Shown here: piece after piece, positions 2,029 through 29,059 of the stretch
How positions within the stretch are numbered: the stretch's first letter is position 1
How the letters are laid out: every line of letters begins with the position of its first letter
From: an uncultured Candidatus Saccharibacteria bacterium
Lineage (GTDB): Bacteria; Patescibacteriota; Minisyncoccia; Phycocordibacterales; PALSA-1337
DNA length: 64,000 nucleotides
Assembly: GCA_964416985.1 (NCBI GenBank)
Contig: CAYQFS010000002.1
Span: 57,155-121,154, forward strand
Reading direction: 5' to 3'
Program-made: the position numbers and the translations under genes
The notes under the pieces: model-generated
Database searches by the model: none
What the model was told of the DNA's origin: nothing
The model's input: only the letters and a program-made list of their open reading frames with translations

Positions 2029-2040
2029 AATAATTACCTT

Positions 2041-2256
2041 TTAAGGGACACCGGAAATTACTGCTCCGAGAAGAAATAAAACTGCTCCCAAGACTACTCC
2101 CCAAAACAAAATCAGAAACTGGCAGGTGCCACTCCTAATCTTAATGAAGAGAGGGGAACAGAAGGAGATAAGAGCTAGCACTCCTCCTGTTAATGCAAGT
2201 AATAGACCGAACGTGGGGAACATATTGAGGCTTCCTTTCAAGAGCCAGAGCAACAT
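2041..2256 (-). CDS. Small hydrophobic membrane protein (71 aa, about 2 TM helices)
   Basis: ORF is almost entirely hydrophobic (LLLALTGGVLALISF..., ILFWGVVLGAVLFLLGAVISG). It sits 12 nt upstream of the 100-aa ORF on the same strand. Confidence 0.4.
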   Translation of the reverse strand: MLLWLLKGSLNMFPTFGLLLALTGGVLALISFCSPLFIKIRSGTCQFLILFWGVVLGAVLFLLGAVISGVP

Positions 2257-2339
2257 TAGTTAATAGAGCTGTTATCAGCAAAGCACCATGCCTTGCGTTA
2301 TTACTAAAAATAGAGTAACATAATCCTCATTAAACGTCA

Positions 2340-3212: not shown

Positions 3213-3252
3213 GAGGGTTACAACAAGCTCGAAAACAGCTCCACGACACGAC

Positions 3253-3281
3253 TTGACAATTCTGTCAATTGTGCTATGCTA
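3253..3281 (+). promoter_or_regulatory. Sigma-70-like promoter TTGACA-N16-TGcTATGCT
   Basis: TTGACA at 3253, then a 16-nt spacer and an extended -10 TGCTATGCT. It lies about 45 nt upstream of the ATG at 3329. The -10 shares the TGCTAT core with the promoters at 8494 and 17116. Confidence 0.4.
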
Positions 3282-3328
3282 TTGGAGTCAGCAGTACATT
3301 GTCGTTTAACCTTAACCAAAGGCAAATA

Positions 3329-3595
3329 ATGAAACAGCCAAGTCTGACGGTAGGCTTAGAGGAAACCCTGGAGCTCCTCGCGATCTACCTTCCTGAAGTA
3401 CATCCCATAACTGTTGTTGTCGGACGGATAAATGAAGATACTGTCACGGGCGTACTTGCTGGTATCAACGCTACCCATGTAATCGTCGAAAATGACGAAA
3501 TTGAGGCACCGATACATATCGCACGAAGTACAATCAAGACGATCAATCATTCACCAATCCCGACAGTACGACTCCACGAGATGGTGGTGGCATAA
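3329..3595 (+). CDS. Small hypothetical protein (88 aa), possibly Lsm/DUF2642-like
   Basis: Internal Met of ORF 3269..3595, preceded by AAAGG 7 nt upstream, one of the few SD-like sites in the window. The pattern VVVGRINEDTVTGVLAGINATHVIVEND resembles small Lsm-like DUF2642 proteins. This is from memory, not verified. Confidence 0.4.
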   Translation: MKQPSLTVGLEETLELLAIYLPEVHPITVVVGRINEDTVTGVLAGINATHVIVENDEIEAPIHIARSTIKTINHSPIPTVRLHEMVVA

Positions 3596-3686
3596 AGCCA
3601 ATCCACCAAGGGCAAACGCCGGCAAGCAATTCACATTAGCTTGTCGGCGCCTTTTATTTTGCCCATTTTCTGCTATCATACATATC

Positions 3687-4637
3687 ATGTCAAAAAAGAT
3701 ATCACTCTCTGGTATACAACCAAGCGGCAGACCTCATATAGGTAACTATTTTGGAGCAATGAAACAGTGGGTAGACTTTCAGAATGAGGGTTATGAATGC
3801 TACTACATGATTGTTGACTATCATGCTCTTAATACAATTCAAAACGGAAAAGAAATGAAGGAAAACATCTTGAATCTCATCATTGATTTGATGGCCATCG
3901 GTCTTGATCCAAAGAAGTGCATCCTTTTCAAACAGTCCGATATTTCAGCACACACTGAACTCGCTTGGATTCTTGAAACAATTACAACTATGCCATACCT
4001 TATGCGAGCACACGCTTTTAAAGATGCGGAGGCAAAGAACAAAGAGATTAGTGCAGGAAAGTTTCTATACCCACTCCTTATGGCAGCAGATATTCTTCTA
4101 TATGATGTCGACGTGGTTCCAGTAGGGCAAGATCAAAAGCAGCATGTAGAATACGCACGAGATACAGCTCAAAAATTTAATACTATTTTTGGAGAGACTT
4201 TTAAACTGCCCGAAGATTACATCATGAAGAGTGTCGCCATCGTCCCCGGAACTGACGGTCAAAAGATGTCAAAGAGTTACAATAACACCATTCCTCTTTT
4301 TGCCACCCGAGATGAAATTACAAAAGGCGTGATGAGCATTGTTACAGATTCAGGTTCAGATGTACCTACAAATGTTTACAATATCCACAGGCTTCTCAAA
4401 TCAGAGGCCGAGCTTAAACCTCTTTACGACGCAAACAAAGGAAAATACAAGGCACTCAAAGAAGCTTTGATTGAGGATCTTGAAGCATTCATTAAGCCAC
4501 TCCGTGAAAAAAGAGAGAAGCTCGCCCAGGATATTCCGGCAGTTTTGGAGGTCTTGAAGGGAGGTGCAGAGAAAGCCAAAATAAAGGCGGACAAAAAACT
4601 GGCTGAGGTGAAGAAAGTAATAGGGGTTGGCTTTTAA
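3687..4637 (+). CDS. trpS: Tryptophanyl-tRNA synthetase (class I; HIGH-like PHIGN and KMSKS motifs)
   Basis: MSKKISLSGIQPSGRPHIGNYFGA ... GQKMSKSYNN. The start is the internal Met of ORF 3492..4637. TATCAT lies 7 nt upstream of the ATG. Confidence 0.92.
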   Translation: MSKKISLSGIQPSGRPHIGNYFGAMKQWVDFQNEGYECYYMIVDYHALNTIQNGKEMKENILNLIIDLMAIGLDPKKCILFKQSDISAHTELAWILETITTMPYLMRAHAFKDAEAKNKEISAGKFLYPLLMAADILLYDVDVVPVGQDQKQHVEYARDTAQKFNTIFGETFKLPEDYIMKSVAIVPGTDGQKMSKSYNNTIPLFATRDEITKGVMSIVTDSGSDVPTNVYNIHRLLKSEAELKPLYDANKGKYKALKEALIEDLEAFIKPLREKREKLAQDIPAVLEVLKGGAEKAKIKADKKLAEVKKVIGVGF

Positions 4638-4647
4638 TTACAAATAT

Positions 4648-6045
4648 ATGGAACGAACATACATCAAAGATTTGAAAGGGCAGGCAGGCAAGGAAGTCTC
4701 AATTTCGGGATGGATTGATATTCGACGTGACCAAGGAAAAATGGTTTTCTTTGACTTTCGAGACATGACAGGAAAAGTGCAGGGCGTGGTGCTCCCAAGC
4801 CAGACTGCCGCTCTCGAAGTTGCAAAAACTCTCCGACCAGAGTGGGTGGTTAGCGTCAAAGGAAAGGTCAATGCTCGGCCAGAAAAAAATATTCAAAAAG
4901 ATAAATTGAACGGAGACATCGAACTTGAGGTGTTTTCGATCTCAGTTTTAAATGAAGCTACAACACCGCCACTTGATGTCACTTCAGATGGAAAAGAAAT
5001 TGGGGAAGAGGTGAGACTCAAGTACCGTTACCTCGACCTTCGACGTCCTCGACTCCAAAAGAACGTCCGAAATCGCCACAAAGTTATCAAACTCATTAGA
5101 GACAATCTCGATGAAAAGGGCTTTATCGAAGTTGAGACTCCGCTTTTGAGCAAGTCTACTCCCGAAGGTTCTCGTGACTTCGTGGTGCCTTCACGTCTTG
5201 GAAAAGGAACTTTTTACGCGCTTCCACAATCCCCTCAGCAATACAAACAGCTCCTCATGACTGCTGGAATCGAAAAATATTTCCAGATTGCCCGATGCAT
5301 GCGAGACGAAGACACCCGCGGAGACCGCCAGCCCGAATTTACCCAGCTCGATCTCGAAATGAGTTTTCCGACTCAGGAAGATGTCATTCAATTAAATGAA
5401 GAGATGCTCATCAAACTTGTCAAAACTATCTACCCTGAAAAAAGAATTCAGAGCATTCCATTTCCTCGACTTACCTATGCCGAGGCAATGACAAAGTACA
5501 ATTCTGACAAGCCTGATATCCGGGAAAACAAAGAAGATCCAAATCTTCTCGCCTTTTGCTGGGTAATTGATTTTCCAATGTTTGAAAAAACTGACACTGG
5601 TGCGTGGACATTTACCCACAACCCTTTCTCAGGAGTTCAGGCACAACATGAGGCAGATCTCATGACTGCTAAAAATATCGAAAAGATTCTTGCCGTCCAA
5701 TACGACATTACTCTGAACGGTCATGAAATCGGAGGTGGAAGTGTGCGAAATCACAAACCCGAAGCTCTAAAAAAAGTTTTCCAGATCATGGGGTACTCCG
5801 ATGAACGCATCGAGGCAAACTTTGGTCACATGTTGAAGGCTCTTGGCTCAGGAACACCTCCACACGGAGGAATTGCATGGGGACTCGATCGACTGATGAT
5901 GATACTCGAAAATGAGCCAAACATCCGGGAGGTGATAGCATTTGCAAAGACGGGAGAAGGAAGAGATTTGATGATGGAGTCACCGTCAAGCATAAGTGAG
6001 GAGCAGTTGGAGGAGTTGGGGATAGAGGTAAAAGGGGAGGAGTAA
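4648..6045 (+). CDS. aspS: Aspartyl-tRNA synthetase, bacterial type but lacking the GAD insertion domain (about 466 aa)
   Basis: OB-fold N-terminus, then class II motifs (FYALPQSPQQYKQLLM, QIARCMRDEDTRGDRQPEFTQLDLEMSF, GGGSVRNH, GLDRLMM). An alternative TTG start at 4627 would overlap the trpS stop. Confidence 0.9.
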   Translation: MERTYIKDLKGQAGKEVSISGWIDIRRDQGKMVFFDFRDMTGKVQGVVLPSQTAALEVAKTLRPEWVVSVKGKVNARPEKNIQKDKLNGDIELEVFSISVLNEATTPPLDVTSDGKEIGEEVRLKYRYLDLRRPRLQKNVRNRHKVIKLIRDNLDEKGFIEVETPLLSKSTPEGSRDFVVPSRLGKGTFYALPQSPQQYKQLLMTAGIEKYFQIARCMRDEDTRGDRQPEFTQLDLEMSFPTQEDVIQLNEEMLIKLVKTIYPEKRIQSIPFPRLTYAEAMTKYNSDKPDIRENKEDPNLLAFCWVIDFPMFEKTDTGAWTFTHNPFSGVQAQHEADLMTAKNIEKILAVQYDITLNGHEIGGGSVRNHKPEALKKVFQIMGYSDERIEANFGHMLKALGSGTPPHGGIAWGLDRLMMILENEPNIREVIAFAKTGEGRDLMMESPSSISEEQLEELGIEVKGEE

Positions 6046-6071
6046 AAGGAAAGTGGTAAAATATCCTCATT

Positions 6072-6950
6072 ATGAAAACCTCGCTTAAGCGCATTACGAC
6101 AAAAGACAACATCGAGCTTGTTGGTCTTCTTCATGAGCCAGATACTGGTTCAGATACTGTTCTCGTGCATGTACACGGAATGGCAGGTAATTTTTATGAG
6201 AATAAGTTTCTTGATAACATTGCCGAAACTCTTACAAACTCTGGAATTGCTTTTTTTGCTTTTAATAATAGGGGATGTGAAAGTATCAAGGATCTTACTG
6301 CTACAGTTGACGGAAAAAAGAAATTCGTAAAAGTTGGAAATGCGTATGAAAAGTTCGAGGACTGCCTTTTAGATATTGGCGCTGCCATAGATGCAGTTTC
6401 AACTTGGGGTTTTTCCAAGATACATTTATCAGGCCACAGCCTTGGTAGCCCAAAAGTTTCCTATTATCTAGCAACTACAGCAGATAGTCGAGTAAATTCA
6501 GTTCTCCTATTGTCACCTTCAGATATGCTCGGCTTAGTTCGTAGTGATTCAGAAAGATTTAAAAAAGATATCAAGGAAGCAACTGACAAAGTTACTTCAG
6601 GAAGGGGAAATGAACTTCTCTCAACTCAAGTCTGGGATGAGTATCCTATAAGTGGAGCAACTTATCTAAGTTTATTTGGAGATGATTCTCCTGTTGCTGT
6701 GTTTAATTTTCATAAGCCCTCAGACAGGCTTGAAACTCTAGGCAAAATACACCAGCCACTCATAGTTATCATGGGTCGAAAAGATGATTCTCTTGTGGTG
6801 TCTATAGAAGAGACAATGGAAAGAATTACTAATGCCTGCACAAAAAGTCCACACGTAGAAACAGTAATACTTGGAGATGCAAATCATGGATATTTTGGAG
6901 ATGAACAGGCATTGGCTGATGCAATTAAGATATGGATTCTAAAAATATGA
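6072..6950 (+). CDS. Alpha/beta-hydrolase fold protein (GHSLG nucleophile elbow)
   Basis: HVHGMAGNFYEN ... HLSGHSLGSPKVSYY ... GDANHGYFGDE, consistent with a Ser/Asp/His hydrolase. There is no signal peptide. Confidence 0.75.
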   Translation: MKTSLKRITTKDNIELVGLLHEPDTGSDTVLVHVHGMAGNFYENKFLDNIAETLTNSGIAFFAFNNRGCESIKDLTATVDGKKKFVKVGNAYEKFEDCLLDIGAAIDAVSTWGFSKIHLSGHSLGSPKVSYYLATTADSRVNSVLLLSPSDMLGLVRSDSERFKKDIKEATDKVTSGRGNELLSTQVWDEYPISGATYLSLFGDDSPVAVFNFHKPSDRLETLGKIHQPLIVIMGRKDDSLVVSIEETMERITNACTKSPHVETVILGDANHGYFGDEQALADAIKIWILKI

Positions 6951-7825
6951 CCTACCCAATTGCTACAGTAAAAACAAAAGACGGTATCTGGCTGCATGGA
7001 CTTTTTTTGGACGTGGAAAAAGGTAAGACCGTTCTAATTAATATACATGGTACGGCAAGTAATTTCTACGAAGAGCATTTTATAGAAGTAATATCTAAAG
7101 TTTTTCCTGAAAAAGGCATCTCTGTACTTTCCACGAATAATAGAGGAACTGGCGTATATGACGCTTATCAGAAAACAGGTGCTGCTGTAGAAAAATTTGA
7201 AGAGTGTATTCTCGATATAAATGCCTGGATTGAACTTGTTCTTTCTAGGGGATATGAGAAGATTATTCTTTCTGGGCATAGTCTCGGAACTGAAAAGGTT
7301 GTCTACTACATGAGCAAAGGCACTTATGCTGATAAAATTTCAGGCCTTATTCTTTTTGCTCCCGCAGATTCTTATGGATCACACAGAACCCTGAATGGAA
7401 AAGATAATACGAAAATTAGGGAAAAAATAGAGGAGCTTCTTACAATATCAGAGCATATGGTAGAAAGAGGGCAAGGGGACGTCTTTCTTGCTAAAGATAC
7501 TTATGGTTCTCATACTGGAATTATGCCCAAAAGTGCTGAATCTCTAGTCAATTTTCTTGGCCGAAATTCAAAGGTTCTTGAAGGATTGCCTTTCGTCACC
7601 AGAAAACTAAAATCCTACAGTGAAATCAAAATTCCAATTTTTGTTGCAATTGGAGACAAGGAAGAATACACAGGGTTGACGGTCGTTGAGGCATTGGATC
7701 TCATGAAAAAGGAAAACTCACTCACTGAGATTACTCAATTCAAAAATTGTGATCATGATTTCCAAGGTTGTGAGAAAGAATTAACACAATCTGTACTTTC
7801 TTTCATCAAAAAACATGGATTCTAA
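6932..7825 (+). CDS. Alpha/beta-hydrolase fold protein, tandem paralog of the preceding gene
   Basis: INIHGTASNFYEE ... ILSGHSLGTEKVVYY ... NCDHDFQGCE. Architecture is collinear with the upstream hydrolase. Its start overlaps the upstream stop within the 14-mer ATGGATTCTAAAAA. Confidence 0.75.
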   Translation: MDSKNMTYPIATVKTKDGIWLHGLFLDVEKGKTVLINIHGTASNFYEEHFIEVISKVFPEKGISVLSTNNRGTGVYDAYQKTGAAVEKFEECILDINAWIELVLSRGYEKIILSGHSLGTEKVVYYMSKGTYADKISGLILFAPADSYGSHRTLNGKDNTKIREKIEELLTISEHMVERGQGDVFLAKDTYGSHTGIMPKSAESLVNFLGRNSKVLEGLPFVTRKLKSYSEIKIPIFVAIGDKEEYTGLTVVEALDLMKKENSLTEITQFKNCDHDFQGCEKELTQSVLSFIKKHGF

Positions 7826-8138
7826 AAACGTAAAACTTGTCGTCACTGTTCCTGAATCTCATTGCGACATTGTTCGTGAAGCAATCGGAAAGGCGTGCGG
7901 AGGTAAAATTGGTAATTACAGCCACTGTTCTTTTTCTGTGAAGGGAATTGGACGATTCACACCCGAAAAGGGTGCAGAACCACATATTGGAAAAGTTGGA
8001 ACATTGGAAGAGGTAACAGAAGAAAGAATAGAAGTAACCTGCACTCGAGAAAAATTACAGAAGATAATTAAGGCAATAAAAAAGGTGCATCCGTATGAGG
8101 AAGTAGCTTTGGATGTTTATTCATTAGAAAAAATTTAA
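7815..8138 (+). CDS. Standalone NIF3-family PII-like insert domain protein (107 aa)
   Basis: VTVPESHCDIVREAIGKACGGKIGNYSHCSFSVKGIGRFTP ... HPYEEVALDVYSLE resembles the inserted PII-like domain of YqfO/NIF3 proteins, as recalled from memory. It starts with the same 14-mer ATGGATTCTAAAAA as the preceding gene. Confidence 0.55.
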   Translation: MDSKNVKLVVTVPESHCDIVREAIGKACGGKIGNYSHCSFSVKGIGRFTPEKGAEPHIGKVGTLEEVTEERIEVTCTREKLQKIIKAIKKVHPYEEVALDVYSLEKI

Positions 8139-8142
8139 ATTT

Positions 8143-8478
8143 ATGGCAACTATAGAAGATTTTCAGAAGTTAGATATTAGAACAGGAAAAATTATTGAAG
8201 TAAATGATTTCCCAGAAGCAAAGAAACCGGCATACAAACTGAGGATTGATTTTGGTCCTGAAATCGGAATCAAAAATTCTTCAGTCCAGATCGTTGCTCT
8301 ATATAAAAAAGAAGAACTCATTGGAAAATTAGTTCTTGGCGTGGTTAATTTTCCCCCTCGAAAAATAGGTCCATTTGAATCAGAAGTACTCACTCTTGGG
8401 GTACCTGACGGAGAAGGTAAGGTAATACTTATAACACCTAGTAAGGAAGGCGCCATGATTGGAGGAAAATTATTCTAG
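8143..8478 (+). CDS. csaA: tRNA-binding domain protein (CsaA / Trbp111 / MetRS C-terminal-like OB fold)
   Basis: MATIEDFQKLDIRTGKIIEVNDFPEAKKPAYKLRIDFG is typical of Myf-domain tRNA-binding proteins. Confidence 0.8.
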   Translation: MATIEDFQKLDIRTGKIIEVNDFPEAKKPAYKLRIDFGPEIGIKNSSVQIVALYKKEELIGKLVLGVVNFPPRKIGPFESEVLTLGVPDGEGKVILITPSKEGAMIGGKLF

Positions 8479-8493
8479 GTACAAATATAGCCC

Positions 8494-8521
8494 TTGACAC
8501 TTCCTCCCTCCATGCTATAGT
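8494..8521 (+). promoter_or_regulatory. Promoter TTGACA-N16-TGcTATAGT (extended -10)
   Basis: TTGACA at 8494-8499, a CT-rich spacer, then TGCTATAGT at 8513-8521. The -10 decamer is identical (ATGCTATAGT) to the promoter at 17135-17144. Confidence 0.5.
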
Positions 8522-8527
8522 AACCCC

Positions 8528-9022
8528 CAGAAACGAGCGGGGTTACCTCAATGGAGGTTGACTCTAATCGCTCAACAAACAAAAGCACAGACATGTACTC
8601 ATGAGCAAAAAAAGTGGAGTCCATCAAGCAGAAATCATTGAATTCGATGGCCGGTGCGGTACGGCACGCGTCACTGACCTCGATAACCGGATTGTAAAAA
8701 TCCATCGGAAATTCATGAGACATATCAGGGGTTCATGGATCTCTGACGAAGCATACCGGGGTGATACACAATTACTAATCGGCTCGAGACTTCAGATCGT
8801 TCTCATCATCGGCCACAGTGGGTGGGCGCGCGTATGGGGACTGAGTGCTGACTACCAGCCATCGGAGGCAGCAAAGCGCATAAAATCTCACTCAAATCGT
8901 GTGGCGCCATGGCACCAGACTCGGCAATCTCAATGTGTCGGAATGCGAGCCTAGGCAGAAAAATCTAATCACCAAAACCTTTTCAGGGACTGGGAGTCAC
9001 GCACTCCTGGTCCCGGTTTTTT
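8528..9022 (+). ncRNA. Candidate large structured ncRNA (about 495 nt), possibly RNase P RNA (rnpB); identity unverified
   Basis: A 580-bp interval between csaA and scpA with no convincing CDS, and local GC well above the genome background. It has its own promoter and a terminal hairpin plus U-run. Several short matches to bacterial RNase P RNA occur in the same order as in E. coli M1 RNA: TCCATCAAGCAG vs UCCAUAGGGCAG, GATGGCC, GGTGCGGTA, GGGGTTCAT, and CAGACTCGGCAATC vs CAGAACCCGGCUUAUC. The P5.1-P9 region would have to be much reduced. Confidence 0.45.
8985..9022 (+). terminator. Intrinsic terminator (GGGACTGGGAGT / ACTCCTGGTCCC stem with two G-U pairs, then a T7 run)
   Basis: The hairpin is immediately followed by GGTTTTTTT. 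It lies 40 nt upstream of the scpA promoter. Confidence 0.6.
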
Positions 9023-9060
9023 TATTACCCATTCCCTCATATTTTTGGTATACTTACCAC

Positions 9061-9825
9061 ATGTCCGCCGAGGCAGGGGTCAAAAAGCTCATCCCGAATT
9101 CTCACTTCAAAATCAAGACTGAAGTTTTTGAAGGGCCTCTCGACCTCCTCCTTACTCTCGTAGAAAAAAGAAAACTTTTTATCGGAGACATCGCACTTGC
9201 AAAGGTGACCGATGATTTTATTGAGCATATCAAAAATTTTGACAAACTTCCGATGGGGGAGTCAGCCCAATTCATCCTCGTCGCCTCGACTCTTCTTCTC
9301 ATTAAATCAAAATCACTTTTACCATCACTTACATTGACTGAAGAGGAAGAGGAGGGAATACACGATCTCGAAATTCGCCTCAAAATTTATAAAAGAATAA
9401 AGGATGCCAGTGTTCATGTAAAGGAACTTTTTGGAGATGAAATGATTTTTCTGCCAAGCCAAATGAAGCCTGTTGAGCCAGTATTTTCACCTCACGAATC
9501 AATGACACTTTTGTCCCTCGCGGAAGCTATACGAGACATTGTTAAACATCTCCCCAAAAAAGAAGCTATTCCCAAGGCGGTCATTAAAAAAGTTGTGAGT
9601 CTAGAAGAAATGATTGACAATCTTACTAAAAGGATAACTCAGGGGCTTCGTATGAGTTTCAAGGAATTTTCAAGTCAGCACAAGGCAGAGAGGGTAAATG
9701 TTATTGTGAGTTTTCTTGCCATGCTTGAACTAGTAAAGCAGGGAGTCATTCAGGCACATCAGGATGATACCTACGGAGATATACACATGGAAACACAATC
9801 AGTCGGTGTTCCAAGATATAACTAA
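9061..9825 (+). CDS. scpA: Segregation and condensation protein A (kleisin ScpA)
   Basis: EGPLDLLLTLVEKRKLFIGDIALAKVTDDF is a ScpA signature. The start is the internal Met. An extended -10 TGGTATACT lies 6 nt upstream of the ATG. Confidence 0.85.
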   Translation: MSAEAGVKKLIPNSHFKIKTEVFEGPLDLLLTLVEKRKLFIGDIALAKVTDDFIEHIKNFDKLPMGESAQFILVASTLLLIKSKSLLPSLTLTEEEEEGIHDLEIRLKIYKRIKDASVHVKELFGDEMIFLPSQMKPVEPVFSPHESMTLLSLAEAIRDIVKHLPKKEAIPKAVIKKVVSLEEMIDNLTKRITQGLRMSFKEFSSQHKAERVNVIVSFLAMLELVKQGVIQAHQDDTYGDIHMETQSVGVPRYN

Positions 9826-9868
9826 GGATTTCGTGTGATATAATTAAAAAATCACCATCCTATATCCT

Positions 9869-10447
9869 ATGGCTATTTCATTGTCCTCAAAAATCCAAGC
9901 TGTACTTTTTTACAAGGCAGAACCACTGTCGTTGAAGCGCCTTGCAAGTATTTTGAAGGTTGAAGAAAATGAAATTAAGACTGCCTTGATTGAGCTTAGA
10001 GAAGACCTAAGAGAAACTGGCCTTACACTTATTGAATGGGAAGACGAGGTGACGCTCGGGACATCAAAGGACGTTTCCGGACTCATTGAAATCCTAACAA
10101 AGGAAGAACTTACAAAGGACCTCGGAAAAGCCGGACTCGAAACGCTCTCCATCATTCTCTACCAAGGGCCTCTTACCCGGGCAGAAATTGACTATGTGAG
10201 AGGGGTCAATTCCCAGTTCATTTTGAGAAATCTTCTTGTCAGAGGTCTCATTGAAAAAGTTGAGAATCCCAAAGACCAACGAAGTTTTCTTTACAAGCCT
10301 TCACTTGAGCTCATTTCATATCTTGGAATTTCAAAAATAACAGACCTTCCAGACTATGATACTGTAAGAAAAGATATTGAATCGTTCAAATTAAACGCAC
10401 ACGATGAGTACCATGGAGCATCCCCAGAAACACAGGAAAATAGATAA
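9869..10447 (+). CDS. scpB: Segregation and condensation protein B (ScpB)
   Basis: Winged-helix repeats (IQAVLFYKAEPLSLKRLASIL ... LSIILYQGPLTRAEIDYVRGV) typical of ScpB. Gene order scpA-scpB is conserved. Confidence 0.85.
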   Translation: MAISLSSKIQAVLFYKAEPLSLKRLASILKVEENEIKTALIELREDLRETGLTLIEWEDEVTLGTSKDVSGLIEILTKEELTKDLGKAGLETLSIILYQGPLTRAEIDYVRGVNSQFILRNLLVRGLIEKVENPKDQRSFLYKPSLELISYLGISKITDLPDYDTVRKDIESFKLNAHDEYHGASPETQENR

Positions 10448-11522
10448 GGCTTACCTAGCCTCGGTCATACTCCTTACGATCGGAGGTTTTTTTGTATTTA
10501 GTTCTGCATCTCTTGGACTTCTTGCTCGAAATGGGGAAATCTTTCAGTCTGTAGCACTTACCCAGAGTATCGGACTTCTCATCGGGATTGCTGCATTTTG
10601 GGTAATGTCATTTATTCATTACAAGAATCTGCGAAAATATTCCTTCTACATTTTTATTTTTGCACTTATTCTAAATCTTCTTCTCTTCATTCCTGGACTT
10701 TCTCTCTCCCACGGAGGAGCGGCTAGATGGATCAATCTTAAATTTGTAACGTTTCAGCCCTCAGAATTTTTAAAAATCGCTTTTATTATTTACTTTGCAG
10801 CCTGGCTTGCAAGCGTTAAGGAAAAAATTACAACGTTCAAACTTGGAATGCTTCCTTACATTGTTCTCATGGGAATTCTTGGGCTCCTCCTCTTGAGCCA
10901 GAGTGACACAGATACCCTCATCGTAATTGCAGGAACTGGTATCGCAATGCTTTTTGCTGCAGGAGCTAGGATCCGCTACATCGCTGCTATGATACTTGCC
11001 CTTGTTGTGGTAGTCGCTGGAGTTGCATATACGAGGCCATATGTGCGCGACAGAATTATGACATTTATTAACCCAACAGCCGATATCCAAGGAAGCGGCT
11101 ACCAGATTAATCAGTCTTTGATTGCCATCGGTTCAGGTCAAATAGCAGGAAGAGGTTACGGGCAGAGCATTCAGAAGTTCAATTATCTTCCTGAACCAAT
11201 CGGAGACTCGATCTTTGCAGTTCAAGCAGAAGAGTTCGGATTCGTTGGTAGTTTCATCCTTGTTGGACTCTTCCTTCTCTTTGCCTTTAGATCATTCAAA
11301 ATTGCCACCCGAAGCCCTGACAGTTTTGGTGGACTTGTGGTAATGGGAATTGCTATACTTACTATCGTCGAATCATTCATGAACATTTCGTCGATGCTTG
11401 GCATCATTCCACTTTCAGGAATGCCGCTTCTTTTTGTAAGCCACGGCGGAACGGCTCTCATTATCATCCTCGGGGCTGCAGGAATCATCGCCAACATTTC
11501 CAAATACCAAAAAACTCTCTAA
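10404..11522 (+). CDS. ftsW: SEDS-family peptidoglycan polymerase FtsW/RodA
   Basis: About 10 TM segments with the conserved blocks QPSEFLKIAFIIYFAAWL and GSGQIAGRGYGQSIQKFNYLPEPIGDSIFAVQAEEFGFVG. An alternative start at 10413 is possible. Confidence 0.85.
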   Translation: MSTMEHPQKHRKIDKAYLASVILLTIGGFFVFSSASLGLLARNGEIFQSVALTQSIGLLIGIAAFWVMSFIHYKNLRKYSFYIFIFALILNLLLFIPGLSLSHGGAARWINLKFVTFQPSEFLKIAFIIYFAAWLASVKEKITTFKLGMLPYIVLMGILGLLLLSQSDTDTLIVIAGTGIAMLFAAGARIRYIAAMILALVVVVAGVAYTRPYVRDRIMTFINPTADIQGSGYQINQSLIAIGSGQIAGRGYGQSIQKFNYLPEPIGDSIFAVQAEEFGFVGSFILVGLFLLFAFRSFKIATRSPDSFGGLVVMGIAILTIVESFMNISSMLGIIPLSGMPLLFVSHGGTALIIILGAAGIIANISKYQKTL

Positions 11523-11537
11523 TATACTATTTTACTT

Positions 11538-12674
11538 ATGAAAATACTTTTTGCTGGAGGAGGAACAGGGGGACATTTTTATCCAATTATTGCCATTGCT
11601 GAAGCTATTCGCGAAAGAGCAAAGGAGAAGAAAATTCTCATGCCACAGCTCTACTTTATGTCGACAAATAGGTACAATCCTCGATCCCTTTTTGATAATG
11701 ACATAGAATTTGTAGGTATCACGACAGGGAAAATGCGCCGATATTTTTCTATTCTCAATTTTCTTGATTTCTTCAAGACTGCTTGGGGAGCTCTTTCCGC
11801 TACAATTAAGATGTATCAAATATATCCAGATGTCGTATTCGGAAAAGGAGGATACGCAAGTTTTCCAGCTATTTTTGCAGCTAAATTGTTAAAAATTCCA
11901 GTCATTATCCACGAATCCGACAGCAGTCCAGGAAGAGTAAATGCCTGGGCAGCGAAATTTGCACGTAGGATTGCCGTCTCATATCCTGAGGCGATCGAAC
12001 GATTCAATTCCAAGGTAGACAGATCAAAAATCGCCTTTACCGGAAACCCTGTGCGAAAGGATGTCCGAGATCCTCTCTCAAATGGCGCGCGCGAATTCCT
12101 CAATCTTGAGGAAACGACACCAGTCGTTGTCATCCTTGGAGGCTCGCAAGGATCTCAAAGGATCAATGATGCTGTCATTGACGCACTAACTGAACTCATT
12201 GAACGCTACCAGATTATTCACCAGGCAGGCAGAAGTAATTTTGAAAATGTAAAACAGACTATGAGTGTAGTCCTCAAAGACAAGCCGAATGCCTACCGCT
12301 ATCACCCCTTTGAGTACTTGAACGACCTCGCGCTCCGTATGTCTGCAGGAGTTGCAGATATCATTGTCTCGAGAGCTGGATCAGCAATATTTGAGATTGC
12401 TTCATGGGGAATTCCTTCAATCATTGTTCCTCTATCACGGGAGGTGAGCCACGACCAGACCGACAATGCCTTCTCCTATGCAAAATCAGGAGCCTGTGTT
12501 GTAATTGAGGAGCATAACCTGAGCTCGCATATTTTGATTTCTGAGATTGACAGAATCATAAATAGTCAGTCTATTAGGGATAAAATGAAGGCTTCGGCCA
12601 AGGAATGGAGCCATCCCGAGGCTGCTCAGAAAATTGCCGATGTAATCCTTGAGACAGCACTGGAACACGAGTGA
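11538..12674 (+). CDS. murG: Lipid II synthase MurG (UDP-GlcNAc:undecaprenyl-PP-MurNAc-pentapeptide GlcNAc transferase)
   Basis: MKILFAGGGTGGHFYPIIAIAEAI and the C-terminal GT-B fold motifs. Adjacent to ftsW as in dcw clusters. Confidence 0.9.
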   Translation: MKILFAGGGTGGHFYPIIAIAEAIRERAKEKKILMPQLYFMSTNRYNPRSLFDNDIEFVGITTGKMRRYFSILNFLDFFKTAWGALSATIKMYQIYPDVVFGKGGYASFPAIFAAKLLKIPVIIHESDSSPGRVNAWAAKFARRIAVSYPEAIERFNSKVDRSKIAFTGNPVRKDVRDPLSNGAREFLNLEETTPVVVILGGSQGSQRINDAVIDALTELIERYQIIHQAGRSNFENVKQTMSVVLKDKPNAYRYHPFEYLNDLALRMSAGVADIIVSRAGSAIFEIASWGIPSIIVPLSREVSHDQTDNAFSYAKSGACVVIEEHNLSSHILISEIDRIINSQSIRDKMKASAKEWSHPEAAQKIADVILETALEHE

Positions 12675-12737
12675 GAAATATGCTAGTATTCACTCATTAG
12701 CAATAACAATCATTATTAGTAATTTACGTATAACTAT

Positions 12738-13235
12738 ATGGAACAAAACCAAGGAATCAAAGCATGGCAGTGGATTGTAACAGTGATTATCATCATTGTT
12801 CTCGTTATCCTCGGCTACTACATGTTCAAGGGTAATTCATCTGCCCCAACTACAACAGAAACTTCTACTATGGAGGAAAATGCCTCAAACGGAGATGTTA
12901 ATCGAGTAATCGTAGCCGACCAGTATCCTGGAAATATCGTCTACGTTACCTCAGCTCAGCTTGCAGCACCAGGATGGGTTGTCATCCATGAGGATAATGG
13001 AGGAATGCCAGGAGCTATCATCGGTTCAGCTTACTTTGACAAGGGAATCAACCCAGGAAAGATCACTCTTGCAAAGAAAACAGAGGAAGGAAAGCTCTAC
13101 TACGCAATGCTTCATTCAGATGATGGAGACAAGAAGTTCGACGCTACAAAGGATATGCCTTTGAAGGATGCTCAAGAAAACATCATCATGAAACCATTCC
13201 GAGTTTCTTCTACAGTTTCAGAGATTAAGGGATAA
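12738..13235 (+). CDS. Hypothetical N-terminally TM-anchored extracytoplasmic protein (165 aa)
   Basis: N-terminal anchor AWQWIVTVIIIIVLVILGYYMF followed by a soluble domain. The anchor is paralogous to that of the ORF at 15942. Confidence 0.6.
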   Translation: MEQNQGIKAWQWIVTVIIIIVLVILGYYMFKGNSSAPTTTETSTMEENASNGDVNRVIVADQYPGNIVYVTSAQLAAPGWVVIHEDNGGMPGAIIGSAYFDKGINPGKITLAKKTEEGKLYYAMLHSDDGDKKFDATKDMPLKDAQENIIMKPFRVSSTVSEIKG

Positions 13236-13260
13236 TATAACAGACTCACAGTCAGACAAA

Positions 13261-13285
13261 AGCACTCAAAAACTGAGTGCTTTTG
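13261..13285 (+). terminator. Intrinsic terminator AGCACTCA-aaaac-TGAGTGCT then TTTT
   Basis: Perfect 8-bp stem directly after the stop of the 12738 gene, followed by a T-run. Confidence 0.6.
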
Positions 13286-13303
13286 TGTTATAATTACCCT
13301 TAC

Positions 13304-14617
13304 ATGCCCAAGAACATCATTACCCGTTTTCCTCCATCACCTACAGGTTTTCTTCATGTAGGCCGCGCCCGTACGGCCCTTTTCAACTATCTTTTCACCA
13401 AGCACAACAAAGGGAAGATGGTCTTTCGAATTGAAGACACTGATAAAGAAAGATCAAAAAAAGAATATGAAGAAAATATAATTGAATGCCTTGAATGGCT
13501 TGGGATCACTTACGATTCTGGTCCATTTCGTCAATCAGAAAGAAACGAAATTTACCAAAAATACATTAAAAAAATGCTCGACAACGGCTCGGCATACATT
13601 TCAAAAGAAACTGAAGGTGATCGGTCTGAGGTGATTCGATTTAAAAATCCAAACAAAAAAATTACGTTCACTGATCTCATTCGCGGAGATGTAACAATCG
13701 ACACCACCGACCTCAAAGATTTTGTCATCGCACGAAGTATGGAAGAACCTCTCTACCATTTAACTGTTGTTGTCGATGATCATGAAATGGGAGTAACCCA
13801 TGTCATTCGTGGAGATGATGGAATTGCCAATACTCCCCGCCAGATCCTCATCCAGGAGGGAATAGGGGCGGAAAGGCCGTTATATGCCCATATACCGCTC
13901 ATTTTGGCCGCAGACCGGTCAAAGCTCTCTGGCCGTCATGGGGCTGTTTCTGTCACTGAATTTCGAGATATGGGCTACCTGCCAGAAGCCTTTGTGAACT
14001 TCCTGGCGCTCCTCGGCTGGAACCCAGGAACCGAGCAGGAAATTTTTTCAATGGATGAACTTGCAAAAATTTTCTCTCTCGAAAAGGTCCAAAAAGCTGG
14101 GGCAATATTTAATGTAGAAAAATTAAACTGGTTCAACAAACAATACCTCGAGAAGCTCGACGATGTCTCTTTTCTCAAACATGCAGAAAAATTTTGGCCA
14201 AAAGACATTTCATCTGATCAGAAAAATAAATTAATTCCTCTCATCAAGGAAAAAATCTCACACTTTGCCCAAATTCCCGAACTTTTCAAAGGTGAGCTTT
14301 CTTTTATCTACGGAGTTGCCAAATATCCAAAAGAAAAATTGATGTGGAAACAAGAGACTGATATTTCAGCAAGTAAAAATAATCTACAACTTGTTATTGA
14401 TATCATAAAAAGCATTTCAGAAGAAACATTTAATTCAGCTTATATTAGGGCACAAATCTGGCCTCTCGCCGAGAAGACTGGAAAAGGAAATGTCCTCTGG
14501 CCTATGCGTTTTGCACTCTCAGGACAGGACAAATCACCGGATCCTTTCGTCATTTCCGCACTACTTGGCAAGGAAGAAACTCTCAAACGTCTTACCTCTG
14601 CTTATGAAGCAATTTAG
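13304..14617 (+). CDS. gltX: Glutamyl-tRNA synthetase
   Basis: RFPPSPTGFLHVGRARTALFNYLF (HIGH region) and a KLSGRHG variant of KMSKS. Start is the internal Met. TATAAT lies 9 nt upstream. Confidence 0.9.
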   Translation: MPKNIITRFPPSPTGFLHVGRARTALFNYLFTKHNKGKMVFRIEDTDKERSKKEYEENIIECLEWLGITYDSGPFRQSERNEIYQKYIKKMLDNGSAYISKETEGDRSEVIRFKNPNKKITFTDLIRGDVTIDTTDLKDFVIARSMEEPLYHLTVVVDDHEMGVTHVIRGDDGIANTPRQILIQEGIGAERPLYAHIPLILAADRSKLSGRHGAVSVTEFRDMGYLPEAFVNFLALLGWNPGTEQEIFSMDELAKIFSLEKVQKAGAIFNVEKLNWFNKQYLEKLDDVSFLKHAEKFWPKDISSDQKNKLIPLIKEKISHFAQIPELFKGELSFIYGVAKYPKEKLMWKQETDISASKNNLQLVIDIIKSISEETFNSAYIRAQIWPLAEKTGKGNVLWPMRFALSGQDKSPDPFVISALLGKEETLKRLTSAYEAI

Positions 14618-15887
14618 GCTGCACATATTCATACTATGTTTGGCTATTGTTGTTTTTGGCATTTTCTCGTACGTGAATGCTCAGAGCATTGAAGAAATTC
14701 AAGGAAAAATTACCCAAAGAAATGAGACGATCAAACAACTTGAACAAGAGATTTCAAAATATCAGACTGAGATCGATGCTCTTGGAAAAGAAGCCAGTTC
14801 ATTAAAGAACACCATTACTTCTCTCGATCTCTCAAAGAAAAAACTTGAGACGGACTTAAAAATTACCCAAAATAAAATCGACTCAACCAATCTCGAGATC
14901 AAGCAACTCTCTCTTGCAATTACCGATAAAGGAGAACGAATTACCGACAGCAAGCGAGTCATTTCTCAGTCACTTTCAAGTATCGATCGCATTACCTCAA
15001 ATACACTTCTCGAAAGTTTGATGGGGGCGGAGACTCTGACCGAAGCCTGGCATGCCACCGAAGAGCTCAATATTCTCCAATCGGGAATAGGGGAGAGAAT
15101 TCATAGCCTCGCCAGTGTCAAAGCCTCCCTTGAAGATAACAAGAAAATGACTGAGCGAAAAAAGACAGAACTTATAGCCCTGCAAAAAGATTTAAGCGGA
15201 CAACAGAGGGCGATCATTGCAACTACAAATGAAAAAAATGCTATTCTCAAAGAAACAAGAAATAATGAGGCGGCGTACAACAAACTTCTAGCAACACGTA
15301 AGCAGCAAAAAGAAGCTTTTGAGAGGGAAGTGGACTCTCTTGAAGCCGCTTTGAAAATTGCCATCGACCCCTCAAGCATTCCCCACACAGGAACAGGTGT
15401 TTTGAACTACCCTCTCGATAAAATTACGATTACCCAGTACTTTGGAAATACAAAGTTCGCTACAAAAAATCCCCAGATCTATAGTGCTGGAACCCATCCT
15501 GGAGTTGACTTTGCTGCCTCTATCGGTACTCCCGTCAAAGCTGCTCTCGGCGGTACAGTCGTTGGCGCTGGAAATATGGATCTTGGCGGAGGCGGTCGTT
15601 GTCGTGCATACGGTAAATGGGTCATGATAAAGCATCCAAATGGTCTATCCACCTTGTACGGACATCTTTCAGTCATTAGTGTAAACATGGGAGACAATCT
15701 CGTGACGGGAGAAATCCTTGGCTACAGCGGAAACACCGGAGCTACCACAGGTCCACATCTCCACTTTGGTGTGTATGCAACCCAGGGAGTACGTATAACA
15801 AACCTTGTTTCGAGTTCATATTGTTCAGGAGTCCTATATCCTCTGGCCGATCCAAAGGCCTATTTGAACCCACTTTCATTCCTCTAG
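14604..15887 (+). CDS. M23 (LytM-type) peptidoglycan endopeptidase with N-terminal TM anchor and long coiled-coil region
   Basis: C-terminal GTHPGVDFAASIGTPVKAALGGTVV ... GHLS ... GPHLHFGVY carries the HxxxD/HxH metal ligands. N-terminal heptad repeats resemble EnvC-like activators/peptidases. Start chosen at MKQFRL, overlapping the gltX stop by 14 nt. Confidence 0.85.
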   Translation: MKQFRLHIFILCLAIVVFGIFSYVNAQSIEEIQGKITQRNETIKQLEQEISKYQTEIDALGKEASSLKNTITSLDLSKKKLETDLKITQNKIDSTNLEIKQLSLAITDKGERITDSKRVISQSLSSIDRITSNTLLESLMGAETLTEAWHATEELNILQSGIGERIHSLASVKASLEDNKKMTERKKTELIALQKDLSGQQRAIIATTNEKNAILKETRNNEAAYNKLLATRKQQKEAFEREVDSLEAALKIAIDPSSIPHTGTGVLNYPLDKITITQYFGNTKFATKNPQIYSAGTHPGVDFAASIGTPVKAALGGTVVGAGNMDLGGGGRCRAYGKWVMIKHPNGLSTLYGHLSVISVNMGDNLVTGEILGYSGNTGATTGPHLHFGVYATQGVRITNLVSSSYCSGVLYPLADPKAYLNPLSFL

Positions 15888-15941
15888 TTTATAAACAACC
15901 TGTTTAAATGCGATTTGAGGCCTATGATATAATGTATTTAT

Positions 15942-16259
15942 ATGAATACTCAGCACGGTTTCGTTAAATGGATCATCATTATCATCATTGCACTCATTGT
16001 TCTCGGCTACTATGGTTTTGACATCAGAAAGGCGATAGAAGCTCCAACAACTCAAAGCAACCTCACGTACGTACAGCAAATCGTTTCAACAGTCTGGCAT
16101 AATTATCTCAAAGCTCCGGCAGTTTATTTATGGAATATTTTTAAAAAATATATTTGGCAGGTGGCACTCGATAGTCTTGATAAGATGAGTAGAGGCGAGC
16201 CAACAGTTATCGATAATGCCTCGCCAAAGGTTAATGAGGTAGGAACATCAAGCCCTTAG
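15942..16259 (+). CDS. Small N-terminally TM-anchored hypothetical protein (105 aa)
   Basis: Anchor VKWIIIIIIALIVLGYYGF parallels that of the ORF at 12738. Own terminator downstream. Confidence 0.5.
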   Translation: MNTQHGFVKWIIIIIIALIVLGYYGFDIRKAIEAPTTQSNLTYVQQIVSTVWHNYLKAPAVYLWNIFKKYIWQVALDSLDKMSRGEPTVIDNASPKVNEVGTSSP

Positions 16260-16282: not shown

Positions 16283-16367
16283 GTGTACCTCTATATTCTA
16301 GTCGTAAAAGATATATTGTCCGACACGACTATACTAGGTCCCCTAGCGCATTTAGATCCAGAAAGGT

Positions 16368-16679
16368 TTATTTCACTAAATACATTTTCGTTCTTATTTT
16401 CTCCAACTTTAAAATAATTTCTTCGTCAGTTATTTTTTTAAATCTTTTTACTATTCTTCCCTTTACCTCAACATCCCCAATAAACATTTCAAATGGTCGT
16501 ACGCAATAATCGGCTTTGAGATATGTATTTTTATATAGTGGTCGATAAATGACACTTAAAGCCTGCGATTCAGTATCCATCCCTACCCCGATGACCTCGT
16601 AGGCATGGTTGTTGAAGTCTTTTTGAGGGTCGTGTTTAAAGTGATAATAAAATCCGAGGGGAATTGAGATTGGTTTCAT
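16368..16679 (-). CDS. DUF1653-family protein (103 aa)
   Basis: GFYYHFKHDP ... AYEVIGVGMDTESQALSVIYRPLY ... YCVRPFEMF matches the conserved hallmarks of DUF1653 as recalled. Confidence 0.55.
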   Translation of the reverse strand: MKPISIPLGFYYHFKHDPQKDFNNHAYEVIGVGMDTESQALSVIYRPLYKNTYLKADYCVRPFEMFIGDVEVKGRIVKRFKKITDEEIILKLEKIRTKMYLVK

Positions 16680-16735
16680 AATTGAAATTATCTCATAGCA
16701 TATGTTAGACTGCTACAAAAGAAAGGAATTCAGTT

Positions 16736-17104
16736 ATGTATCAAACAGTGATCTTCGACAGTCTATGGGTCGAACCACACCCCGCCAATGTCCCAGAACT
16801 CAGAACGATAAAGGCTTTTCATTCTGGTTCTTTGAATGAATTTCCTGAAGTGACTATCAATATCCCTCTGGAAACACTTCCCCAGGAAATCTACCCCGAT
16901 GGGATTCTGGAAGGAGTATTGTTTAATATTGCAGACCTGAAACAAAAAGTTTCTCCCGTCTTATACAGGACAGTGCTGTGTCTATATATATCGTCACAAG
17001 GTTACGCAGTAATCCTCATAAACCTCCATCAGGGAAATCGAAAAGTGGGGTGGCGAAGGCTCGACTTTGGTGAGTTCGCACCAATCATCGCTAAAGTACC
17101 CTAG
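16736..17104 (+). CDS. Hypothetical protein (122 aa)
   Basis: Intact ORF with no recognisable domain. Followed by a promoter-like element and a small structured region. Confidence 0.45.
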   Translation: MYQTVIFDSLWVEPHPANVPELRTIKAFHSGSLNEFPEVTINIPLETLPQEIYPDGILEGVLFNIADLKQKVSPVLYRTVLCLYISSQGYAVILINLHQGNRKVGWRRLDFGEFAPIIAKVP

Positions 17105-17115
17105 GGAATGACCCC

Positions 17116-17144
17116 TTGCCTCCCCTTTCCTTCTATGCTATAGT
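17116..17144 (+). promoter_or_regulatory. Promoter TTGCCT-N17-TGcTATAGT
   Basis: Near-consensus -35 and an extended -10 identical to the one at 8513-8521. There is no downstream CDS on this strand. Confidence 0.45.
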
Positions 17145-17150
17145 CGTAGA

Positions 17151-17251
17151 GCTATAGGGTCACTGAGTGGACCTGAGCTGTGGTCATCCTGTCGATGGCC
17201 AAATCTGGGAGTGGGTGCTGATCGCAAGGTTGGCACCCACTATTTTATTTT
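17151..17251 (+). ncRNA. Candidate small RNA (about 100 nt) with its own promoter and terminator; identity unknown
   Basis: The transcript would end in the hairpin AGTGGGTGC-UGAUC-GCAA-GGUUG-GCACCCACT (GNRA-type GCAA loop) followed by ATTTTATTTT. It lies between convergent genes. No ORF. Confidence 0.4.
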
Positions 17252-17257
17252 CCCCAT

Positions 17258-17295
17258 CAACAACAAAACCCCGGAGGCTTTCGCTTCGCGGGGTT
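17258..17295 (-). terminator. Intrinsic terminator for the minus-strand transglycosylase gene (AACCCCG / CGGGGTT stem, T-rich tail on the minus strand)
   Basis: Minus-strand reading gives a stem followed by TTTTGTTGTTG. It is directly downstream of the stop at 17309. Confidence 0.5.
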
Positions 17296-17308
17296 TCGTC
17301 TTGAGATA

Positions 17309-17764
17309 TTATTTATTAATTGTAAGATCCTTTGAGGCCCAACATTTAGATGAGGCTTTCCAAGGAGCCGCTCCCTGTTTCTCGTAGAGATACTTTGCGT
17401 AGTCCACGTTACCTTCAGTGGTATAGAGATCGTAGCCAAGCTTCTTTGCAGTTTCTGCGTGATACTTTTCATTGATCTGCATCACACCGACATCAAGCCT
17501 GTTGACTCGTCCACGAATAACATTACCGTCTTTATCGAACTGACTAAATGTGGATTCACATCGAGCAATTTCGACAAGGATAGGGGTATCGGCATATTCT
17601 TTTCGGACATAATTTTCAACGGTCTTGCGATCCTGTACAGTCACCTGAGCAATCTGTTCCGGGTCAGCGGCTACCATATTTGCAGCTGTCGCTTGTGCGG
17701 AAGGAGTACCTGAACCATACATCGATGACAAGAGGAATACGACACCTGTAGATATTTCAATCAT
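17309..17764 (-). CDS. Secreted lysozyme-like / lytic transglycosylase (SLT) domain protein
   Basis: Signal-peptide-like N-terminus (MIEISTGVVFLLSSMYGSGTPSAQA), then ARCESTFSQF ... LDVGVMQINEKYH, consistent with the SLT-domain ES ... GLMQI catalytic motif. Confidence 0.6.
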   Translation of the reverse strand: MIEISTGVVFLLSSMYGSGTPSAQATAANMVAADPEQIAQVTVQDRKTVENYVRKEYADTPILVEIARCESTFSQFDKDGNVIRGRVNRLDVGVMQINEKYHAETAKKLGYDLYTTEGNVDYAKYLYEKQGAAPWKASSKCWASKDLTINK

Positions 17765-17975
17765 ATAATTTTTTAGAGGTACAGTTGATTGATATGACTC
17801 AATCGACCGTACCTCTGATGAAGATAATACTAGCATTTTTGAAAAGGAATGTCAAGGGTAATAAGAGCAAAATCGGCAAAATACCCTTATTTTACAAGGG
17901 TTTCTAGACAATGCTATTTCACCTAAGTAAAGGCTATTGCATTTTTTAGCCTCTTCCTATATACTGACTCTCACT

Positions 17976-28285: not shown

Positions 28286-29059
28286 ATGAATAAAGAAATC
28301 CCAGATTTTTTTGAAATATTCGACCTCAAACCTGTACCAAAGAAGGTGCTTTTGGATATTGTTAAGCACGGAGATTCCTCTGTCGCAAATATTGCCGCAC
28401 GGCTCAATATGCCAAAATCGACCGTCTATGATGCCCTCTCCCCTCTTATCGCCAAAAGTCTCATAAATGAGTATAGTGGTGACCATGGTAAAACATTTGG
28501 AATATCAGATACTGAACAGCTTACCCGAGTCCATGCGGAGAAAATGGAGGAACTCAAAAAGGCTCACTCTTCCCTTCTTTCATTTATTCAAAACCACAAA
28601 GCAGAAAATAGTGTTGCTCAGCCAAAAATTAAATTTTATTCAGGAATCCTGGGAATCAAACAGGCATTTCGCGACACGCCATGGGTAAAGGAGCATAAGG
28701 AAACATACATGCTCTGGCCAACCACGGACATGATTGACATTGATGAAGCATTTTTTAAGTGGCACGGTACGCAGCGTTTCGCTTATAAGGTTTTCATTTA
28801 TGCAGTCGAGAAACATGCCGATCGAAAACTTCAGACTAAAAAACACGAATGGCTTAAAAATGATTCGAAAGAAAATCTTGTGAAAGTACGATATCTACCA
28901 AAAGGAACTGACGTAAAAATGAGCTACTGGATTTACGGAGATAAAGTTCTTTTTGCAAGTGGTGGTGCTGAAAAAATTGCCTTTACTGTTCATAGCAAAG
29001 AATTTTCACAGATGATGAAGATTATGTGGCAAAACACGTGGGACAATTCAAAAGAATAA
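28286..29059 (+). CDS. TrmB-family transcriptional regulator (N-terminal wHTH plus C-terminal TrmB-like domain)
   Basis: DLKPVPKKVLLDIVKHGDSSVANIAARLNMPKSTVYDALSPLIAKSLI is a TrmB-type HTH. 257 aa is a typical full length. It is divergently oriented and embedded in the liv cluster. Confidence 0.6.
   Translation: MNKEIPDFFEIFDLKPVPKKVLLDIVKHGDSSVANIAARLNMPKSTVYDALSPLIAKSLINEYSGDHGKTFGISDTEQLTRVHAEKMEELKKAHSSLLSFIQNHKAENSVAQPKIKFYSGILGIKQAFRDTPWVKEHKETYMLWPTTDMIDIDEAFFKWHGTQRFAYKVFIYAVEKHADRKLQTKKHEWLKNDSKENLVKVRYLPKGTDVKMSYWIYGDKVLFASGGAEKIAFTVHSKEFSQMMKIMWQNTWDNSKE

Follow-up and report, generated by a model that had tools for sequence, protein, structure and literature searches.

A candidate orphan small RNA gene restricted to one genus-level clade of Paceibacteria

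Introduction

Small RNAs of the RyhB/Spot 42 and RsaE/RoxS types are transcribed from sigma-70-type promoters, are approximately 100 nt in length, contain no open reading frame (ORF) and fold into several hairpins. Each belongs to one lineage, and each carries a conserved single-stranded stretch immediately before a strong Rho-independent terminator. A further kind of small RNA, represented by MicL and DapZ, is derived from a 3' UTR and is transcribed from a promoter of its own, close to where the upstream gene ends. For the Patescibacteria (CPR), a literature search found no described small RNAs.

Here we describe an intergenic element from a Paceibacteria (CPR) MAG, that is, from one of the ultra-small Patescibacteria, lying in a stretch of 64,000 nucleotides that was analysed as a whole and is hereafter called the window. 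As predicted from its sequence, the element would share all of the features of the RyhB/Spot 42 and RsaE/RoxS types listed above; however, it has no sequence or covariance-model similarity to them, its unpaired stretch is G-rich (CUGGG) whereas theirs is of the C/U-rich anti-Shine-Dalgarno type, and its host, unlike theirs, is a Patescibacteria genome. In the window and in one relative (L092) it also resembles the MicL/DapZ type, since its promoter lies 12 nt past the stop codon of an upstream gene, whose mRNA would use the same terminator. It differs from that type in that the promoter is outside the coding sequence, and in that two other alleles (the L089 type and L181) have no co-oriented upstream gene at all. 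We consider it likely, from comparative sequence evidence, that the element is a stand-alone non-coding small RNA gene of approximately 95–100 nt, which arose in the ancestor of a genus-level clade and most probably acts in trans. It is a genus-restricted orphan small RNA, new and unannotated but of a well-known kind, and it is dispensable, because it has been deleted in an in-group lineage (L183/L185).

Results

The element lies between two convergent genes. Upstream, on the plus strand, is a gene for a protein of 122 aa with no known domain (16736..17104); downstream, on the minus strand, is a gene for an SLT-like protein of 151 aa (17309..17764), which served as the synteny anchor and whose homologues start at M25 of the 175-aa ORF. 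Other neighbouring genes encode L27, L9, a CtpA-type protease, CysS, GltX and an M23 peptidase. Among homologues of the SLT-like protein, some are named in their sources as Paceibacterota or Patescibacteria, the species-representative loci are from Paceibacteria, Taylorbacteria-type MAGs, and the window was matched in Logan contigs from runs SRR132874xx. The DNA derives from runs SRR13287413-26, as well as from JGI sample 3300045392 and others related to it.

The informative relatives were the contigs of the SLT-like protein's 90%-identity cluster, which has four members. Four distinct alleles of the element were recovered: that of the window, the L089 type (identical in L089, L090, L091, L093 and L094), L092 and L181. 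A covariance model built from hairpin 2, the linker and the terminator, and run over the window and approximately 110 loci, matched these four alleles only, L181 scoring 76 bits. Over the SLT-like and L27 genes, DNA identity between the window and all the others is 86–88%; it is 98.5% between L089 and L092, 93% between L181 and those two, approximately 90% between L183/L185 and the L089/L092/L181 group, and approximately 75% for the outgroups L095 and L009.

Beyond these relatives, comparison of positions 17100–17300 with 80 species-representative loci anchored on the SLT-like gene gave no blastn or nhmmer match, and a degenerate pattern scan found no match in JGI metagenome contigs; there were likewise none in viral contigs or, by BLAST, in phage records. 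The closest relative in a protein-anchored metagenome scan was 76% identical and lacked the RNA, and the 64-kb window contains no paralogues of it. A first-pass annotation, which had proposed a small RNA here, regarded conservation in related genomes as a check on that proposal; the element is indeed kept, but only within its own clade. On the sequences compared, its conservation is very narrow, extending to one genus-level clade of Paceibacteria.

The promoter that the same annotation had described, TTGCCT-N17-TGcTATAGT pointing into an ORF-free stretch, is present at 17116–17144, and the approximately 100 nt beyond it are without a conserved ORF. Its -35 box TTGCCT (17116..17121, plus strand) is identical in all four alleles and is separated by 17 nt, ending in TGC, from the -10 hexamer TATAGT (17139–17144), the whole extended -10 element TGcTATAGT occupying 17136..17144 on the plus strand. 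Taken alone, this match to nine of 12 consensus positions is not above chance (16 such sites were found in a 7-kb scan, against 13.6 expected). When the pattern is tightened to TTG-N17(TGn)-TAnnnT, the window contains six exact matches, where 2.65 are expected, and at least six were obtained in three of 100 shuffles. Four of the six are closely upstream of same-strand ORF starts, namely those of the SLT-like gene (17855–17827, minus strand) and a TrmB-like gene (28202) and the sites at 49959 and 63117; one is intergenic, and the last is the promoter of the small RNA. Since the strict pattern mostly precedes ORFs, the small RNA promoter is of the type that the genome uses for genes.

Relatives show variants of the -10 element at the same spacing, namely TGcTATTAT in L089, TGcTATCCT in L092, where the -10 box (TATCCT) is weakened, and TGaTATAGT in L181. 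The arrangement TTGCCT-N17-(TGn)TAnnnT is thus kept in register with the RNA in four alleles, of which two are without a co-oriented upstream gene. We infer that this orphan promoter starts a plus-strand transcript, with a predicted start at approximately 17150–17152.

The predicted RNA, 17150–17251, consists of three hairpins and an unpaired linker of 8 nt. Folded as the plus strand it has an energy of -46.1 kcal/mol (z = -4.56), a stability that none of 200 shuffled sequences equalled, whereas the minus-strand fold of the same interval is much weaker (z = -2.5). Hairpin 1, the 5' hairpin (17150..17179, plus strand), is drawn from the computed fold and is the least conserved part: L089 keeps a hairpin of different sequence, L092 is without it, and L181 has another sequence in this region, in which ACCAUAGAAUUGGU makes a possible hairpin by eye and which the computed fold pairs differently. 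Hairpin 2 (17181..17201, plus strand) has an 8-bp stem and a CUGUC loop in which UGU is invariant. It is followed by the conserved single-stranded linker AAUCUGGG (17202..17209, plus strand), which is unpaired in all folds and is a candidate seed or binding site; six of its eight positions are invariant among the four alleles, the variable ones being an A to G change in L181 and a U to A change in L089.

The RNA is closed by an intrinsic terminator (17210..17251, plus strand) with a 14-bp stem, a GCAA tetraloop of the GNRA class and the tail AUUUUAUUUU. Its stem (17210–17241) is made of nine Watson-Crick pairs and five inner pairs, three of which are G-U, and is followed by the tail ATTTTATTTT; it begins approximately 65 nt past the -10 box and is the best terminator of the region. 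The first-pass annotation was right to place a hairpin terminator with a GCAA loop approximately 100 nt downstream of the promoter, and understated its strength, giving the stem as 9 bp where it has 14. The separate terminator that it ascribed to the convergent minus-strand gene was also found, as a distinct hairpin at approximately 17262..17300 (minus strand) that lies outside the RNA and corresponds to the ancestral bidirectional terminator.

The heptamer CACCCAC, found in the 3' arm of the small RNA terminator (17234–17240), recurs approximately 13 nt downstream as CCCCACCCAC in L089, L092, L181 and L183; the window counterpart of this downstream tract (17253–17260) is CCCCATCAAC, and the tract belongs to the ancestral spacer. 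The repeat is therefore a hint that the terminator hairpin arose from local sequence.

In all four alleles the fold greatly exceeds shuffled sequence in stability (z between -4.5 and -6.5), and the alleles have a common consensus layout, the exception being the computed fold of L181, in which the 5' half is paired differently. What all four keep is the promoter in register, hairpin 2, the single-stranded linker and the terminator. In an alignment of hairpin 2, linker and terminator, 85 of 88 stem cells pair across the four alleles (96.6%), a proportion that falls to 28–52% when the partners are slid by 1–3 columns. Four of the eight pairs of hairpin 2 have changed on both sides and are doubly compensated, for example GGUCAUC/GAUGGCC against GACCACC/GGUGGUC. 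Every cell of the terminator pairs (100%), six of its pairs varying one-sidedly and always to standard or wobble pairs on the plus strand, and its tetraloop, GCAA, becomes GAAA in L181 and so stays within the GNRA class. The pairing is strand-specific, with only 71 of the 88 cells pairing on the minus strand, because G-U pairs work only on the plus strand. The observed covariation score was reached by four of 500 column shuffles; these statistics are modest, given that the set comprises four alleles from genomes 86–98% identical and that the shuffle control ignores relatedness. We regard covariation among four related sequences as supportive, not conclusive, of selection on the structure.

The neighbourhood of the element bears on its independence. 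A co-oriented upstream gene is present in the window and L092 and absent in the L089 type and L181, where the 122-aa gene is replaced by unrelated, divergently oriented genes on the opposite strand (183 and 282–283 aa). The sequence of L089 and L181 becomes similar to that of the window no more than 4 nt before the -35 box. With a divergent neighbour and similarity starting at this point, the unit therefore runs from promoter to terminator, and the two alleles without a co-oriented upstream gene need a promoter of their own. In the window and L092, the mRNA of the 122-aa gene probably also ends at the small RNA terminator.

Gene content between the SLT-like gene and a dif-like motif, described below, varies among genomes that are 86–98% identical, and the small RNA sits inside this variable stretch. 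It holds a DUF1653 gene and the 122-aa gene in the window (16330–17310), the 183-aa and 282-aa genes in L089 (4457–6437), and the 283-aa gene and DUF1653 in L181 (3457–5213); everything is deleted from it in L183 (1491–1720), and the region compared in L185 is 1037–1324. Except for DUF1653, the variable neighbour genes have no Pfam, PHROGs or PADLOC match. A mobile-element, phage or defence context was considered and is unsupported, PHROGs and PADLOC being empty and no second dif-like site flanking the segment.

At the syntenic sites of the outgroups L095, L009 and L096 (approximately 75% identity), the RNA is absent and the same two convergent genes are separated by a spacer of approximately 65 nt with a single bidirectional terminator. 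L183 and L185 are nested inside the clade of carriers, yet are without the RNA. L185 retains a remnant in which CCCCCCTGCCTCCCCT is fused to TATTTTCCCCAC, that is, the -35 region is joined to the terminator tail, and to judge from this junction the remnant is the signature of a clean deletion of approximately 125 nt. The simplest history that these sequences suggest is a gain in the ancestor of the genus-level clade, followed by one secondary loss.

We found no match to a known RNA family. Rfam 15 covariance models, run over the whole 64-kb window at gathering scores, gave none (SRP_bact, 6S, tmRNA and small RNA families included), so that the comparison with SRP, 6S and small RNA families suggested by the first-pass annotation returned no family. 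Relaxing the threshold to E<=10 over 16900–17500 produced noise only, the best plus-strand hit being SurA with 10.7 bits against a cut-off of 100, and ARAGORN reported no tRNA or tmRNA. As to coding potential, the alleles differ by 1-nt indels, not multiples of three, and no ORF is conserved. A mini-frame reads xKSGSGC in the window and L092 and xKTGSGC in L089, ending in all three at the same in-frame stop; in L181 there is an in-frame stop upstream and then no in-frame start codon. Coding potential on either strand was rejected on account of the frameshifting indels and the missing start codon in L181.

Given that hairpins and a conserved single-stranded stretch precede a strong terminator, we infer that the RNA most likely acts in trans, either as a base-pairing riboregulator or by binding protein. 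Duplex energies calculated for three candidate seeds against the 143 start regions of the 64-kb window yielded nothing beyond approximately 2.3 sd. The linker has one perfect 10-nt complement, TCCCAGATTT, at 28299–28308 on the plus strand, in codons 5–8 of the TrmB-like regulator gene (28286–29059); it is the only strong complement in the 64-kb window, and approximately 0.03 such complements are expected within start regions. In an L089-type genome (L179), neither this site nor a compensating change is present, and the TrmB-like gene was rejected as a target, the complement being unconserved there and probably due to chance.

Pairing of the RNA with the 5' UTR of the SLT-like gene gave loose long-range duplexes only. 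That 5' UTR itself contains a long hairpin, GAGGUACGGUCGAUUGA...CAAUCAACUGUACCUC (window approximately 17770–17815, minus strand), with compensatory differences in L089 and L092 (GAGGUGCGAUGAAUUGA...CAAUACAUCGUACCUC). The start codon of the SLT-like gene is not immediately preceded by a Shine-Dalgarno sequence, and the hairpin may be a cis-regulatory leader.

Approximately 900 bp upstream of the small RNA is a dif-like motif, CTAGTCGTAAAAGATATATTGTCCGACACGAC (window 16298–16329, plus strand), with a conserved block AAAAGATATATTGTGCGACA (TATTGTCCGACA in the window) and a variable left outer arm and flank. It is the only strong match in the 64-kb window (30.7 bits, against 2.3 for the runner-up). 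Written as TATTGTGCGACA, the core occurs once per locus in 87 of the 185 loci that were fetched, in a fixed orientation with respect to the SLT-like gene (at 3001–3012 in L014, for example, and within the motif at approximately 4462–4493 in L009), and these 87 loci span proteins only 45–75% identical. Genes converge on the motif in 84 distinct loci, coding sequence running toward it in 79% on the left and 89% on the right; in the window, the plus strand carries every gene from 6 to 16259 and the minus strand most of those from 17309 to approximately 34800, and the AT skew changes sign at approximately 15–19 kb, near the motif. When compared with the dif sequences of E. coli and B. subtilis quoted in PMC3025954, the motif fits their 28-bp 11-6-11 architecture, with one strongly conserved arm. 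Because one strong motif in the window, converging genes, the flip in AT skew and the 11-6-11 layout coincide here, the motif at 16298–16329, which Paceibacteria conserve, is probably the dif site of this chromosome, located at the replication terminus.

A perfect DnaA-box 9-mer, TTATCCACA, lies within 40 nt of the motif in six of 84 loci (L068, L071, L152, L160, L171 and L173, and not in the window), against approximately 0.14 expected; this adjacency sits oddly with the assignment of the motif to the terminus.

The first-pass annotation had linked the small RNA promoter, through an identical -10 decamer, to that of a large ncRNA at 8512–8521. The identity of the decamer, ATGCTATAGT, is exact; the link carries no weight, because a 10-mer match such as this is at the level of chance, its BLAST E-value in the window being approximately 9. 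Nor is the large ncRNA supported, since the locus has no Rfam match at E<=1, a fold with z = -0.7 and an ORF of 117 aa at 8601–8954. The interval 8496–8960 (plus strand) has a promoter, TTGACA-N16-TGcTATAGT, and its transcript is more likely to be an mRNA than a large ncRNA.

Discussion

We propose that this small RNA gene originated in, or was inserted into, the space between two convergent genes, in the common ancestor of a single genus-level clade of Paceibacteria; most descendants would since have kept it under selection for RNA structure, and one would have lost it. Transcription would start near 17150 from a promoter of the sigma-70 type whose -10 element is extended, and the RNA would form a variable hairpin 1, a conserved hairpin 2, the 8-nt linker AAUCUGGG and a long, GNRA-capped terminator, at which transcription would end near 17245–17251. 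The RNA would act through its conserved unpaired linker and the hairpin 2 loop. The terminator would probably serve a second purpose in the window genome, ending the transcript of the upstream 122-aa gene.

The main rival to this proposal is that the element is a functionless relic, being either what remains (promoter, leader and terminator) of an inserted gene that has degraded, or a young and neutral transcript arising in a rearrangement-prone region near the terminus. Such an origin would agree with the very narrow distribution, the clean loss in L183/L185 that left the -35 fused to the terminator tail in L185, the replacement or loss of hairpin 1 among alleles, the weakened -10 box of L092 and the differing gene content beside the RNA in close relatives. 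It accords poorly, however, with substitutions in hairpin 2 and the terminator that almost all preserve pairing, with the conservation of the linker and of the GNRA loop class, and with outgroups that have no gene at the site from which a relic could derive, and on balance we think it unlikely. It is quite unlikely, too, though suggested by the CACCCAC of the terminator 3' arm recurring just downstream in the ancestral spacer, that this is a regulatory RNA born de novo, its promoter and hairpins drawn from local sequence near the terminus and dif of an ultra-small CPR symbiont, structurally selected and target-specific; if true, this would be a rare, datable birth of a small RNA gene, and Patescibacteria would gain one of their first functional small RNAs.

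Were the element no more than the 3' UTR of the upstream 122-aa gene together with that gene's terminator, and the promoter-like sequence a coincidence, the hairpin would be suitably placed, 105 nt past the stop codon of that gene and on the same strand, and a promoter match of 9 of 12, no rarer than chance, would need no explanation; but in the L089-type and L181 alleles the RNA persists without any co-oriented upstream gene, and with it the -35 box, its spacing and the TG-extended -10 element, and outgroups with the same convergent genes get by with one bidirectional terminator and a 65-nt spacer. We judge this account decidedly improbable, a plain 3' UTR of the upstream gene being contradicted by the divergent neighbours in the L089 type and L181. 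A tiny peptide is hardly credible: a frame of 8–9 codons does end at a conserved UGA/UAG, with the in-frame stop at the same place in the window, L089 and L092 alleles, but the reading fails in L181 for the reasons given above, the frame has no Shine-Dalgarno sequence and lies inside stable stems, and the longer ORFs on either strand (17211–17387, plus; 17138–17236, minus) cross terminators and are broken by 1-nt indels in relatives. We give equally little credence to divergence from a housekeeping or regulatory RNA family already described (SRP/4.5S, 6S or Y RNA, for example). The size is near that of 4.5S RNA and CPR RNAs can be divergent; against this, Rfam returned only local noise below gathering scores, the apical hairpin forms a perfect helix, whereas SRP domain IV has internal loops, and relatives to which an RNA of this sort would be essential are without it.

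A stand-alone, probably trans-acting small RNA gene thus remains our preferred reading of the locus. Since the comparison includes outgroups, carriers and a deletion remnant, both the gain and the loss can be dated inside a single genus, and the locus is a small but clean case of small RNA turnover. The candidate dif site, as a prospective marker of the replication terminus in MAGs of Paceibacteria, is probably of wider practical use than the small RNA. Small RNAs of Patescibacteria appear to be essentially undescribed, and the candidate described here, which combines a clear promoter and terminator with compensatory substitutions, therefore offers a usable entry point for metatranscriptome checks.
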